A DNA stretch of 64,000 bases from the NCBI RefSeq assembly GCF_030384885.1, contig NZ_CP128613.1; one strand, given 5' to 3'. The notes beneath the pieces are model-generated. The model saw nothing but the letters and a program-made list of their open reading frames with translations. It searched no databases and was not told the DNA's origin. This stretch comes from Escherichia coli (GTDB lineage: Bacteria; Pseudomonadota; Gammaproteobacteria; Enterobacterales; Enterobacteriaceae). Positions 14,148 to 18,584 of the stretch are shown in pieces. A program made the translations under genes and the position numbers. Position 1 is the first letter of the stretch. Each line of letters starts with the position of its first letter.

Positions 14148-14927
14148 TTAGTAGCTGCTGGCGCTCTTACCGTCGCCGTGGCCCAGCGCTTTCAGCAGGC
14201 TTGCCAGCAGGCTGGAAGCACCAAAGCGGTAGTGACGCGCATCAGCCCAGTCAGCACCGAACAGTTCATCTGCAATCGCGAGATATTTCTGCGCATCTTC
14301 CGCAGTACGCACGCCGCCCGCCGGTTTGAAACCAACGGTTTTCTCTACGCCCATATCACGGATCACTTCCATCATGATGCGCGCGCTTTCCGGCGTCGCG
14401 TTCACTGCTACTTTACCGGTAGAGGTTTTGATGAAATCAGCACCCGCTTTAATGGATATTTCAGACGCTTTGCGGATCAGCGCTTCGTCTTTCAGTTCGC
14501 CGGTTTCGATGATCACTTTCAGCAGTACATTCGCTGCTGCGCAAGCCTCTTTACAGGCTTTCACCAGATCAAAACCAACCTGCTCGTTACCCGCCATCAG
14601 TGCACGGTACGGGAACACCACATCAACTTCATCGGCACCGTAGGCGATTGCCGCACGGGTTTCTGCCAGCGCGATTTCGATGTCGTCGTTACCGTGTGGG
14701 AAGTTAGTTACCGTAGCGATACGGATTTCCGGGGTGCCCTGCTCTTTCAGCGTTTTGCGAGCAATCGGGATAAAGCGAGGATAGATACAGATAGCGGCGG
14801 TATTACCGACCGGAGTTTTGGCCTGATGACACAGAGCGATCACTTTCTCGTCGGTATCGTCGTCATTCAGGGTGGTCAGGTCCATCAATTTCAGTGCACG
14901 CAGGCTGCTTGCTTTCAGATCAGTCAT
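14148..14927 (-). CDS. deoC: Deoxyribose-phosphate aldolase DeoC
   Basis: 259 aa from [26 protein letters not shown]... Confidence 0.95.
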
Positions 14928-14971
14928 TTCATTCTCCTGGCTTGTCGCCAATAAAATTCACCTTGCGAGTT

Positions 14972-14987
14972 TGTTAGTATTCTAACA
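14972..14987. promoter_or_regulatory. DeoR operator, promoter-proximal
   Basis: TGTTAGTATTCTAACA, one mismatch from the DeoR palindrome TGTTAGAA/TTCTAACA, 45 bp upstream of the deoC start. Confidence 0.6.
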
Positions 14988-15185
14988 TCGACTCCGCAAC
15001 ACACTTCGATATACATCACAATTAAGGAAATCTACTTACAAAATTGCATTACTGTAATGCGATCTGGTTCAAATAATTCACTTTCAAATGAATGCGTCAG
15101 TGGTGGCAAACGCATCAGGATCAAAGTGAACATCACGAAACTTCTTACAATGGCGCATCACCTTCGGCATAAAAAGGAACAGAAG

Positions 15186-16736
15186 ATGCCCACTTCTCAT
15201 GAAAATGCACTGCAACAACGTTGCCAGCAAATTGTCACCAGTCCGGTACTTAGCCCGGAGCAGAAGCGCCATTTTCTGGCGCTGGAAGCAGAAAACAATC
15301 TGCCTTACCCACAGCTTCCTGCCGAAGCCCGCCGCGCGCTGGATGAAGGTGTAATCTGCGATATGTTTGAAGGTCATGCGCCGTATAAACCGCGCTATGT
15401 CTTACCCGATTACGCCCGTTTTTTGGCCAACGGTTCCGAATGGCTGGAGCTGGAAGGCGCAAAAGATCTTGATGACGCACTCTCTCTGCTGACCATTCTT
15501 TACCACCACGTTCCTTCGGTCACATCGATGCCGGTCTACCTGGGGCAACTGGATGCGTTGTTGCAACCGTATGTTAGAATTCTAACACAAAACGAGATCG
15601 ATATTCGAATAAAACGTTTCTGGCGTTACCTCGACAGAACCCTGCCAGATGCCTTTATGCACGCCAATATTGGCCCGTCTGATTCGCCCATTACCCGTGC
15701 GATTTTACGGGCAGATTCAGAGCTGAAGCAGGTTTCACCTAACCTGACTTTTATCTACGATCCTGAAATCACCCCTGATGACCTGCTGCTGGAAGTGGCG
15801 AAAAACATCTGTGAATGTAGCAAACCGCACATCGCCAACGGTCCCGTGCATGATAAAATTTTCACAAATGGGGGCTACGGGATTGTGAGCTGTTACAACT
15901 CACTGCCGCTGGCGGGTGGTGGCAGTACGCTGGTACGCCTTAACCTGAAAGCCATTGCCGAGCGCAGCGAATCGCTGGATGACTTCTTTGCGCGCACTCT
16001 ACCGCACTACTGCCAGCAGCAGATCGCCATCATCGATGCGCGGTGTGAATTCCTCTATCAACAATCACACTTCTTTGAGAATAGCTTCCTGGTGAAAGAA
16101 GGGCTGATTAACCCTGAACGTTTTGTGCCAATGTTTGGCATGTATGGGCTGGCGGAAGCGGTTAACTTGCTGTGTGAAAAAGAAGGAGTTGCCGCGCGTT
16201 ACGGTAAAGAAGCCGCCGCAAATGAAGTGGGTTATCGCATTAGCGCGCAACTGGCGGAGTTTGTCGCCAATACCCCCGTGAAATATGGCTGGCAAAAACG
16301 CGCCATGTTACACGCACAGTCGGGGATAAGTTCCGATATCGGCACCACGCCGGGCGCGCGTTTGCCGTATGGCGATGAGCCAGATCCGATCACCCATCTG
16401 CAAACTGTCGCCCCGCATCATGCTTATTATTATTCCGGCATCAGCGACATTTTGACGCTCGACGAAACCATCAAACGTAATCCGCAGGCGCTGGTACAGC
16501 TTTGCCTCGGTGCCTTTAAAGCCGGAATGCGTGAATTTACCGCCAATGTCAGCGGTAACGATCTGGTTCGCGTTACCGGTTATATGGTGCGTTTGTCGGA
16601 TTTAGAAAAATATCGTGCCGAAGGTTCACGTACCAATACCACCTGGCTGGGAGAAGAAGCCGCACGCAACACTCGTATTCTGGAACGCCAGCCGCGCGTT
16701 ATAAGCCATGAACAGCAGATGCGCTTTAGTCAGTAA
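15186..16736 (+). CDS. yjjI: Glycyl-radical-enzyme-like protein YjjI
   Basis: 516 aa from [11 protein letters not shown]...; C-terminal RVTGY glycyl-radical-type motif; immediately followed by a radical-SAM activase gene. Confidence 0.85.
15573..15588. promoter_or_regulatory. DeoR operator, distal, perfect palindrome
   Basis: Perfect 16-bp palindrome TGTTAGAATTCTAACA, 601 bp from the proximal operator, consistent with the dual-promoter, looped deo control region; it lies inside the annotated yjjI reading frame. Confidence 0.6.
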
Positions 16737-17571
16737 GATTATCCCCTTCTCCTGCGTTGACGGGCCAGGTAGTCGTCTGGCTCTGTTTTTACAGGGCTGT
16801 AATCTGCGCTGCAAAAACTGTCACAATCCGTGGACAATGGGGCGCTGTAATGATTGCGGGGAGTGCGTGCCACAGTGTCCGCATCAGGCGTTGCAGATTG
16901 TTAACAGCAAAGTAGTGTGGAACGCAGCCGTCTGCGAGCAGTGTGATACCTGCCTGAAGATGTGTCCACAACATGCCACGCCAATGGCGCAATCCATGAA
17001 CGTGGACGAGGTGCTTAGTCACGTCCGCAAAGCGGTGCTGTTTATTGAAGGGATAACGGTAAGCGGCGGTGAAGCCACGACCCAGTTGCCGTTTGTGGTG
17101 GCGCTGTTTACTGCTATCAAAAATGATCCACAACTGTGTCATCTCACCTGTCTGGTGGACAGTAACGGCATGTTGAGCGAAACCGGCTGGGAAAAATTAC
17201 TCCCGGTGTGCGACGGCGCGATGCTCGATCTCAAAGCGTGGGGAAGCGAATGTCATCAACAGCTAACCGGACGCGATAATCAGCAGATTAAGCGCAGCAT
17301 CTGTTTGCTTGCAGAGCGCGGTAAGCTGGCGGAACTGCGTTTGCTGGTAATCCCTGGCCAGGTGGATTATTTGCAACACATCGAAGAACTGGCGGCGTTT
17401 ATCAAGGGACTTGGCGATGTTCCGGTACGCCTGAACGCGTTTCATGCCCACGGCGTGTATGGCGAGGCGCAAAGCTGGGCGAGCGCCACGCAGGAAGACG
17501 TTGAGCAGTTGGCTGATGCGTTACGGGAGCGCGGGGTGAGCCGGTTGATATTTCCGGCGCTGTATTTGTGA
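16708..17571 (+). CDS. yjjW: Glycyl-radical enzyme activating protein YjjW (radical SAM)
   Basis: CxxxCxxC radical-SAM motif (CNLRCKNC) plus two ferredoxin-like Cys clusters; 287 aa; overlaps the yjjI stop. Confidence 0.88.
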
Positions 17572-17572
17572 C

Positions 17573-17800
17573 ATGCCGGATGCGGCCTACGGTTCGGCAC
17601 AGACTTGTAGGCATGATAAAACGCGTCAAGCGTCGCATCAGGCATTGTGCGCCAACTGCCGGATGCGGCGTGAACGCCTTATCCGGCCTACGGTTCGGCA
17701 CAGACTTGTAGGCATGATAAGACGCGTCAGCGTCGCATCAGGCATTGTGCGTCGACTGCCGGATGCGGCGTGAACGCCTTATCCGGCTTACGAAGGGCAA
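17573..17800. repeat. REP/BIME cluster
   Basis: Two near-identical copies of a roughly 95-bp unit containing GCCGGATGCGGCGTGAACGCCTTATCCGGCCTAC palindromic elements. Confidence 0.8.
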
Positions 17801-17801
17801 A

Positions 17802-18584
17802 CTACCCACGAACGTTAAACACCGCATACGTGTTATTAAGCAACACTTCGGCAATCTCATCCGCGGGTTCCGGGCGTAACTCGCATAGCACGGCAAACAC
17901 ACGGGCGGCCTGCTCCGGGTGATTAGGCTGCCCCTGAAAACCATTGAGCGGCATATCCGGCGCGTCGGTTTCCAGCAACAACGATGCCAGCGGCAGCTTT
18001 GCGATGACATCGCGGGTTTTACTGGCGCGTGGATAGGTGATAGTACCGCCTACGCCAATTTTGTAGCCCAGCTGCACAAACCGTTCGGCCTGTTGCAGGC
18101 TGCCAGAAAAACCATGAACCACACCAGTGCGTGGCAAATTTTGGCGTTTAAGATGCATCGCCAGTTTGTCGTGCGTGCGCCGTGAATGAAGGATCACCGG
18201 CAGATCGTAGCGTTTCGCCAGTTTCAGTTGTTCATCAAGCAACCACTGCTGCCTCTCAAATTGCGGATCGTCACCAAAGAGATCCAGGCCGATCTCCCCC
18301 ACCGCCACCACCTTCGTCGGACGTCTTCCCAACGCCTGCTGTAACTGATCCAGCGATGCATCGTTATGTTTTTCCAACATCCCCGGATGCAACCCTAAAG
18401 CGGCATACAGCGGTTGATAATTTTCCGCTAACGCCTGCACGCGGGCAAAATTTGCCGCCTCGGTGGCCGGAACAATGATCTTGCCTACGCCCGCTTGTGC
18501 CGCGCGTTGCAGGCTGGCCTCTTCATCGCCACTAAACGGCGGGAAATCAAAATGGCAGTGGGTGTCGATAAAACGGCAAGTCAA
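17802..18584 (-). CDS. yjjV: TatD-family metal-dependent DNase/hydrolase YjjV
   Basis: 260-aa ORF with TatD-like HxH start (FIDTHCHFDFPPF); synteny. Confidence 0.85.
   Translation of the reverse strand: MTCRFIDTHCHFDFPPFSGDEEASLQRAAQAGVGKIIVPATEAANFARVQALAENYQPLYAALGLHPGMLEKHNDASLDQLQQALGRRPTKVVAVGEIGLDLFGDDPQFERQQWLLDEQLKLAKRYDLPVILHSRRTHDKLAMHLKRQNLPRTGVVHGFSGSLQQAERFVQLGYKIGVGGTITYPRASKTRDVIAKLPLASLLLETDAPDMPLNGFQGQPNHPEQAARVFAVLCELRPEPADEIAEVLLNNTYAVFNVRG

Follow-up and report, generated by a model that had tools for sequence, protein, structure and literature searches.

Which reaction the YjjI/YjjW pair of Escherichia coli performs, and on which substrate, is the question raised by positions 15186–17571 of the window, the 64,000 nt stretch of E. 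coli DNA analysed here (RefSeq assembly GCF_030384885.1, contig NZ_CP128613.1). A first-pass annotation of this DNA had described YjjI as a glycyl radical enzyme (GRE)-like protein, shorter than and unlike typical pyruvate formate-lyase (PFL), and YjjW as its radical S-adenosylmethionine (SAM) partner, with no established reaction for the pair. We conclude that yjjI-yjjW very probably encodes a functional GRE with its activase, and that the predicted active site of YjjI is unlike that of the characterised classes; nucleoside uptake and catabolism genes recur beside the pair in distant lineages. The features on which this rests are:

15186–16736, plus strand: yjjI coding sequence, YjjI-family GRE of 516 aa (open reading frame (ORF), PF11230, TIGR04040, RefSeq annotation and AlphaFold2 model)
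15888–15899, plus strand: Cys loop S235-C236-Y237-N238 with the predicted thiyl-radical Cys236; S235, C236 and N238 are invariant, and S-C aligns to C418-C419 of PFL
15936–15938, plus strand: codon of the invariant Arg251 (R-L-N-L), aligned with PFL Arg435 (R-A-N-L)
16569–16583, plus strand: glycyl radical loop RVTGY (R462–Y466, with Gly465 the predicted radical site); R462 and G465 are invariant, and the loop aligns to PFL IRVSGY (Gly734)
16708–16736, plus strand: 29 bp overlap of the yjjI 3′ end and the yjjW 5′ end
16708–17571, plus strand: yjjW coding sequence, radical-SAM GRE activase of 287 aa (TIGR04041, PF04055, Fer4 families, PflA homology)

The pair itself is already catalogued and therefore is no discovery, being covered by PF11230 and TIGR04040/TIGR04041 and named in RefSeq ("YjjI family glycine radical enzyme" and "YjjW family glycine radical enzyme activase"); both TIGR models are typed "hypoth_equivalog" (NCBIfam, June 2026), and the K-12 RefSeq name of YjjI is still DUF3029 protein. 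Family membership is far past chance, as YjjI matches PF11230 with E = 5.5e-220 and 731 bits (threshold 23) and TIGR04040 with 787.6 bits (cut-off 498.3) over profile positions 1–497 of 497, and YjjW matches TIGR04041 with 399.2 bits (cut-off 250.2). The elements read from the letters held up in the detailed analysis: the C-terminal RVTGY motif lies at residues 462–466, the CxxxCxxC motif and two ferredoxin-like Cys clusters of YjjW were located (C31/C35/C38, and CX2CX2CX3C at residues 47–57 and 76–86), the overlap first put at about 30 bp measures 29 bp, and the pair is divergent from the deo operon, with deoC on the minus strand across a 258 bp intergenic region. The overlap suggests translational coupling, and distant homologue pairs likewise have overlaps or gaps of 0–14 bp.

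Bases 14900–17800 of the window match E. coli 2013C-4282 at 100% identity, and of 5426 complete E. coli genomes 5422 carry them at ≥80% coverage. A reading of yjjI as a pseudogene or relic was rejected, since the gene belongs to the core genome and its catalytic residues do not vary.

A predicted active site outside the characterised classes

The YjjI family is small, with 541 clusters (50% identity) at E ≤ 0.001, many of them fragments, and members in at least 593 of ~100,000 species genomes. An alignment of 23 diverse members, with identity down to 33%, contained 30 invariant residues, including S235, C236, N238, R251, R462 and G465, as well as R70, Y71, H159, H376, Q378 and R392; C236 was the sole invariant cysteine. 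An AlphaFold2 model built from this alignment (pLDDT 91.7, pTM 0.91) has the GRE/RNR (ribonucleotide reductase) barrel with Cys236 and Gly465 on beta-hairpins, the Cys236 hairpin being predicted between strands 231–234 and 238–241. YjjI thus displays the features of the GRE superfamily, namely the C-terminal RVxG[FWY] loop and a ten-stranded alpha/beta barrel whose finger loop is tipped by the conserved, predicted catalytic Cys, and a cognate radical-SAM activase adjoins in 67 of 80 genome loci and in 38 of 49 metagenome lineages.

Profile alignment matched YjjI to E. coli NrdD (E = 2.4e-6, spanning YjjI 17–362) and to PflB (hhalign, E = 3e-5, spanning YjjI 89–481), the latter placing S235-C236 on C418-C419, R251-L-N-L on R435-A-N-L and G465 on G734. 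Since both profiles match, the family appears to occupy an intermediate position, small and distinct, between class III RNRs and PFL-type enzymes. With one invariant Cys in an S-C-Y-N loop, the predicted active site matches no characterised GRE class; the structure prediction and active-site comparison proposed with the first-pass annotation were carried out, and the defining feature of every characterised class tested was missing in YjjI.

YjjI shares the RVxGY Gly loop with PflB/TdcE, its Cys loop aligns residue for residue, and both proteins have the R-x-N-L motif that follows the Cys loop, with R251 equivalent to R435, which in PFL binds the pyruvate carboxylate. However, an invariant Ser replaces Cys418 of the PFL Cys-Cys dyad, and YjjI, at 516 aa against 760 aa, is missing ~240 PFL residues, in agreement with the earlier remark on its size. 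Neither PF02901 (PFL-like) nor PF01228 (Gly_radical) reached the gathering threshold in E. coli YjjI, which matched PF11230 only, and the PF02901 matches of YjjI relatives were faint. A PFL assignment was rejected on the S235-C236 sequence in place of the C418-C419 dyad.

The second active-site Cys of NrdD (FNCMLID) aligns with P-R70-Y71-V-L-P-D in YjjI, which has no Cys there and in which R70 and Y71 are invariant. In class III RNRs a C-terminal four-Cys zinc site precedes the Gly loop, whereas YjjI lacks this motif, C440 being the only Cys in its last 180 residues. YjjI is also ~200 residues shorter and has no ATP-cone or allosteric specificity region, the alignment beginning at NrdD residue 120, and the small activase NrdG differs from YjjW, which is PflA-like with a ferredoxin insert. 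Assignment to NrdD was rejected on the second Cys, the zinc motif and the type of activase.

The GRE 1,2-eliminases (glycerol/propanediol dehydratase, CutC, HypD, IslA and E. coli PflD/YbiW) have ferredoxin-domain activases. Their Cys loop carries a Cys-x-Glu motif in which Glu is the general base, but the corresponding residues of YjjI are C236-Y237-N238, with N238 invariant, and the usual general base of the eliminases would therefore be missing; YjjI is also 250–350 residues shorter. The Asn at the Glu position led us to reject this assignment as well.

No sequence relative of YjjI was found in the PDB, in which ligand-bound structures of PflD and YbiW are now available. A full-text literature search, with subscription-only literature outside its reach, returned no biochemical paper on YjjI or YjjW, but regulon tables and one computational guess only, and a 2025 paper enumerating possible sources of glycyl radical signals in E. 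coli omits YjjI. The first-pass statement that the reaction is not established thus agrees with the searchable literature, in which neither a solved structure nor a biochemical paper was found.

The YjjW activase

YjjW is homologous to PflA (28% identity to the E. coli protein), with which it shares DGPGxR, CX3CX2C and SGGE motifs, the last of which serves SAM binding in radical-SAM enzymes. The two differ by an additional two-cluster domain, a 52-residue insert in YjjW that holds both ferredoxin-like motifs:

16759–16776, plus strand: DGPGSR motif, residues 18–23, common to the PFL activase (VDGPGIR)
16798–16821, plus strand: CX3CX2C radical-SAM [4Fe-4S] motif CNLRCKNC, residues 31–38 (C31, C35 and C38), aligned with CLMRCLYC of PflA
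16846–16965, plus strand: ferredoxin-like insert with two CX2CX2CX3C motifs (16846–16878 and 16933–16965), with Fer4 family matches and absent from PflA
17062–17073, plus strand: SGGE motif, residues 119–122, conserved with PflA

The runner-up NCBIfam matches of YjjW were the activases of hydroxyproline dehydratase, sulfopropanediol dehydratase and choline lyase, not NrdG, on whose models it scored 45–62 bits (cut-offs 126–131). In sequence terms, the pair combines an RNR-leaning barrel, as predicted, with an eliminase-type activase.

Nucleoside genes around yjjI-yjjW

Three sets of loci were compared. The genome set comprised the best 80 loci, all ≥56% identical to the query, and remote homologues (33–40% identity) were found by exact-protein look-up. 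A metagenome scan with a degenerate DNA pattern for [VI]R[VI][ST]GYLVKxx[DE] gave 120 stretches; the metagenome and look-up loci together, with simple ORF calling, contained 118 with a YjjI-like ORF, which fell into 49 non-enterobacterial groups at 70% identity.

The pair was intact in 67 of the genome loci. The pair and deoCABD point away from each other in Enterobacteriaceae, Hafnia and Edwardsiella, where a NupC-family nucleoside transporter gene and the TatD-related yjjV often come after the pair. In Gilliamella, YjjI and YjjW end a co-directional run encoding a nucleoside:H+ symporter, adenosine deaminase, CpdB-like nucleotidase, cytidine deaminase, DeoA and a UshA-like nucleotidase (the last in 5 of 8 loci), with DeoD seen upstream in two.

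Nucleoside genes also accompany remote homologues. One locus (L088) consists of co-directional genes for an IU-nucleoside hydrolase, ADP-ribosylglycohydrolase, PfkB kinase, PNP, sulfatase-family protein, YjjI, activase, MFS transporter, Bmp protein and ABC ATPase; nucleoside hydrolase, ADP-ribosylglycohydrolase and ABC permeases lie near yjjI in two others (L085/L086), and an adenosine-deaminase fragment, PfkB, activase and YjjI in a fourth (L097). Among the 49 groups, the Pfam-checked neighbours were as follows:

activase: 38 groups
ABC ATPase: 13 groups
Bmp/PnrA-like binding protein: 12 groups
BPD_transp_2 permease: 10 groups
IU-nucleoside hydrolase: 9 groups
PfkB kinase: 6 groups
LacI regulator: 5 groups
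PNP: 2 groups
DeoC: 2 groups

Phosphopentomutase, cytidine deaminase and a nucleoside-deoxyribosyltransferase-like protein were further neighbours. At least one nucleoside uptake or catabolism gene was found near yjjI in 22 of the 49 groups, and a nucleoside-type gene was co-directional and at most two genes from the pair in 18, with only 32 groups displaying three or more neighbours. The named lineages with such loci include Selenomonadales and Sebaldella termitidis. In two loci (L130 and L112) the pair lies within a transporter operon of the order PNP-Bmp-YjjI-activase-ABC-permease-permease-(PNP)-DeoC-Cdd-DeoB, with gaps of 0–33 bp in L130, whose Bmp protein matches nucleoside-binding PnrA/TmpC/BmpD structures. 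The binding protein of a yjjI operon also matched PDB entry 7x0r ("Lbp", Bmp family) with 466.6 bits (E = 4.8e-139) over 328 residues; the ligand of 7x0r, if known, would bear directly on the substrate of YjjI.

These gene sets resemble Deo/Nup operons and the Bacteroidetes rus loci in their nucleoside hydrolase, ADP-ribosylglycohydrolase, ribokinase-family kinase, PNP, DeoB/C, Cdd, Bmp-type ABC transporter and LacI regulator. Hydrolase, ADP-ribosylglycohydrolase and ribokinase together mark the rus loci as ribose-scavenging, and a radical enzyme is nowhere mentioned in the full text of that paper (10.1101/574913). No report tying a GRE to nucleoside catabolism was found in the searchable literature, in which the cross-phylum nucleoside context of yjjI-yjjW is also unreported; that context is new here.

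Other types of neighbour were seen as well. Near yjjI, one Selenomonadales contig (L166, 9116–12352) encodes a second activase-like protein together with an HhH-GPD glycosylase-like and an AP_endonuc_2 TIM-barrel protein, and another lineage an AlkD-like "DNA_alkylation" protein (L169, 12146–12814); together with the TatD-like yjjV, these DNA-repair-type neighbours give a hint that the pair is tied to the scavenging of DNA or of damaged nucleosides. M20-family amidohydrolase genes and a GATase1-like gene flank yjjI elsewhere (L101, 867–2887; L166, 930–2108). The M20 family includes ureidopropionase and allantoate amidohydrolase types, and these flanks could indicate base rather than sugar catabolism. 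In Shewanella (L051, L052) an AldB-like aldehyde dehydrogenase gene lies directly 5′ of yjjI-yjjW, and a LysR-family regulator adjoins the locus in 11 Vibrionaceae/Shewanella loci (L041–L056). The activase of an archaeal locus (L092–L094) is shorter (247 aa) and had no ferredoxin-domain Pfam match.

Anaerobic and DeoR control at the locus

The regulatory sites and flanking genes of the E. coli locus are:

14148–14927, minus strand: deoC, first gene of the divergent deoCABD operon (ORF and RefSeq)
14928–15185, no strand: divergent yjjI/deoC intergenic region of 258 bp, with the control sites of deoP2 and, presumably, the promoter of yjjI
14972–14987, no strand: DeoR operator O2 (TGTTAGTATTCTAACA), intergenic, a consensus match
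15005–15020, minus strand: CRP site TGTGATGTATATCGAA (deoP2), a ChIP-seq (chromatin immunoprecipitation sequencing) site listed in PMC4287617
15111–15124, plus strand: weak candidate FNR site CGCATCAGGATCAA, with 3 mismatches and a perfect ATCAA half
15572–15587, no strand: DeoR operator O1, perfect palindrome TGTTAGAATTCTAACA, in yjjI codons 129–134 and 600 bp from O2
15851–15866, no strand: probable DeoR operator O_E (TGATAAAATTTTCACA, 4 mismatches), inside yjjI, 279 bp from O1 and 879 bp from O2
17802–18584, minus strand: yjjV, TatD-related DNase family, convergent with yjjW and syntenic in 34 of the 80 genome loci

Previous studies placed yjjI within the FNR-activated class (PMC2634741) and among the direct FNR-activated targets (PMC3688515), and found a 4.3-fold anaerobic induction of the Yersinia intermedia gene (PMC3792023). 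After coordinate conversion, the FNR ChIP peak (PMC3688515) maps to ~93 bp upstream of the yjjI ATG. The centre of the candidate FNR site would be ~41.5 bp upstream of a start site that we infer from the −10-like TACAAT at 15146–15151. No other match to the FNR consensus TTGAT-N4-ATCAA with ≤2 mismatches was found in the yjjI promoter than the known CRP site, and a promoter and terminator scan returned nothing exceeding shuffled expectation.

The window contains two DeoR consensus matches, compared to 0.14 expected. O1 codes for a variable YjjI loop (YVRILTQ). Wherever deoC is divergent in the enterobacterial loci, O1 sits at the same codon with 0–1 mismatch, and all other lineages lack it; this conservation spans Escherichia to Hafnia/Edwardsiella, where protein identity drops to 71–79%. 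The 279 bp spacing of O1 and O_E agrees with the published deo architecture. Besides the intergenic region, yjjI itself contains CRP sites of the deo promoters. A DeoR loop from O2 to O1 or O_E would enclose the yjjI promoter, and transcription from deoP1 would run antisense through the yjjI 5′ end; some regulatory coupling to deoxynucleoside catabolism would therefore be structurally unavoidable.

With respect to the gene calls, the longest plus-strand ORF over yjjI is 15057–16736, in which an in-frame ATG at 15057 adds 43 codons (15057–15185) to the start at 15186 that RefSeq chose. The extension is probably untranslated, since the family profiles begin at residues 11–22 of the 516 aa form, with which they agree. 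Some Citrobacter loci have yjjI ORFs of 528–545 aa for the same reason. Aberrant E. coli database entries (among P0004, P0011, P0075 and P0111) include truncated forms of 402–476 aa and one of 574 aa with a Pfam match to DeoC, which may be a gene mis-called through the divergent region. Tandem repeats of the REP (repetitive extragenic palindromic)/BIME (bacterial interspersed mosaic element) type (gccggatgcggc...cttatccggcctac) occupy the yjjW-yjjV gap at 17575–17795 and account for the median of 34 matching places per E. coli genome.

Proposed role and alternatives

The gene neighbourhoods lead us to propose, with about an even chance of being right, that YjjI is an anaerobically expressed radical enzyme that acts on a nucleoside-derived substrate and is accessory to Deo/nucleoside scavenging. 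Under anoxia FNR switches the operon on, as the literature has shown. By homology, YjjW would then split SAM at its C31/C35/C38 cluster, which the two auxiliary clusters probably feed, and the resulting 5′-deoxyadenosyl radical would take a hydrogen from Gly465 of YjjI to install the glycyl radical. This radical would be relayed to Cys236, the thiyl form of which would strip the substrate of a hydrogen atom; the likeliest candidates for that substrate are nucleosides and the pentoses or pentose phosphates freed from them. Because YjjI has one such cysteine, with neither a dyad nor a second redox cysteine, a redox-neutral radical elimination or rearrangement seems likelier than acyl transfer or thiol-based reduction; such a reaction, like the first RNR half-reaction or that of diol dehydratase, is speculative, as is a formate-dependent deoxygenation. 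The presence of the invariant active-site set in all contexts argues for one common substrate, and a phosphate or carboxylate group would go well with the several Arg and His residues that are invariant.

A bolder form of this proposal, which we put forward tentatively and consider rather improbable, is that YjjI is the first GRE of nucleoside/pentose catabolism, an RNR-like barrel minus its reducing cysteines, which performs a radical 2′-type dehydration/elimination or a formate-dependent deoxygenation of a ribosyl substrate (nucleoside, ribose-1-P, ribose-5-P or ribose-1,5-bisphosphate) that feeds the Deo pathway under anoxia. If true, YjjI could also be a surviving evolutionary intermediate between RNRs and PFL-type enzymes.

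Several observations weigh against a nucleoside-derived substrate. Nucleoside neighbours are lacking in about half of the lineages, none were found in the Vibrionaceae, Shewanella, Providencia and Rhodobacteraceae loci, where the neighbours are instead LysR regulators, aldehyde dehydrogenase or chemoreceptors, and none accompanies the YjjI homologue (~40% identity) of the archaeal locus, which lies among eIF-1A, NMD3 and RIO1. Bmp-family transporters are not all nucleoside-specific, the neighbour counts are raw frequencies rather than enrichments over background, and the metagenome loci, picked by a DNA pattern and grouped at 70% identity, are not fully independent phylogenetically. E. coli co-expression data place yjjI among the anaerobic respiration genes, not with deo, and the proposed chemistry rests on absent residues only. 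To our knowledge, the nucleoside pathway needs no radical step, so that a role for a GRE there is not obvious.

As an alternative, the nucleoside neighbourhood may be coincidence or mere co-regulation and YjjI may act on an unrelated small anionic anaerobic metabolite, e.g. a carboxylate, which the lineages lacking nucleoside genes, the aldehyde dehydrogenase and LysR genes of Shewanella and the LysR and chemoreceptor genes of Vibrionaceae beside yjjI would fit, and which the position of R251 on PFL R435 might suggest. This is a real but doubtful prospect, since the same neighbour class recurs in differing gene orders in Proteobacteria, Negativicutes, Fusobacteriales and other lineages, and the pair is inserted into nucleoside transporter operons with gaps of 0–33 bp, so that inherited synteny is hard to invoke. 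The E. coli expression data have also been read as a role in anaerobic respiration or nitrogen metabolism, as yjjI biclusters with narG, is co-expressed with nar, nir, nrf, frd and dms and has FNR- and NarL-like motifs reported upstream (PMC3228777). The direct action of FNR on yjjI fits this, but shared FNR control accounts for the co-expression, and no nitrate, nitrite or respiratory genes recur beside yjjI at the 80 genome loci or in the 49 metagenome lineages; we also know of no GRE that works in respiration. Such a role is therefore very unlikely, and the nitrogen-metabolism guess was rejected as an effect of FNR co-regulation.

The remaining alternatives concern the chemistry. A cryptic RNR-like reductase, catalysing a formate-driven 2-deoxygenation of a ribonucleoside, ribonucleotide or ribose phosphate that feeds DeoA/B/C/D or deoxynucleoside salvage, is unlikely given the invariant R70-Y71 in place of the second active-site Cys, with C236 the sole invariant cysteine, the lack of zinc motif, ATP-cone and specificity region, and the PflA-type rather than NrdG-type activase; E. 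coli moreover already has nrdDG. It is highly improbable that YjjI is a short PFL-like 2-keto-acid formate-lyase, even though PFL provides the best PDB profile matches of the Cys-loop region (E = 0.003), the hhalign match to PflB extends over most of the protein, and the H. influenzae orthologue is labelled a pflB homologue in an older database note: the acyl-carrying Cys418 is an invariant Ser in YjjI, and the PFL-specific Pfam matches and ~240 PFL residues are missing.

Significance

YjjI appears to be an orphan GRE of E. coli, the best-studied bacterium, with a predicted active site unlike that of any characterised member of the superfamily. The conserved DeoR operators within yjjI are a clean example of a gene-embedded regulatory site. 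The neighbourhood data narrow an open-ended question about YjjI to a short, testable list of substrates. Identification of the substrate would add a reaction class to the family behind gut-microbial cleavage of choline, hydroxyproline and isethionate, and could bring to light an anaerobic step that has gone unnoticed in the scavenging of nucleosides or DNA.

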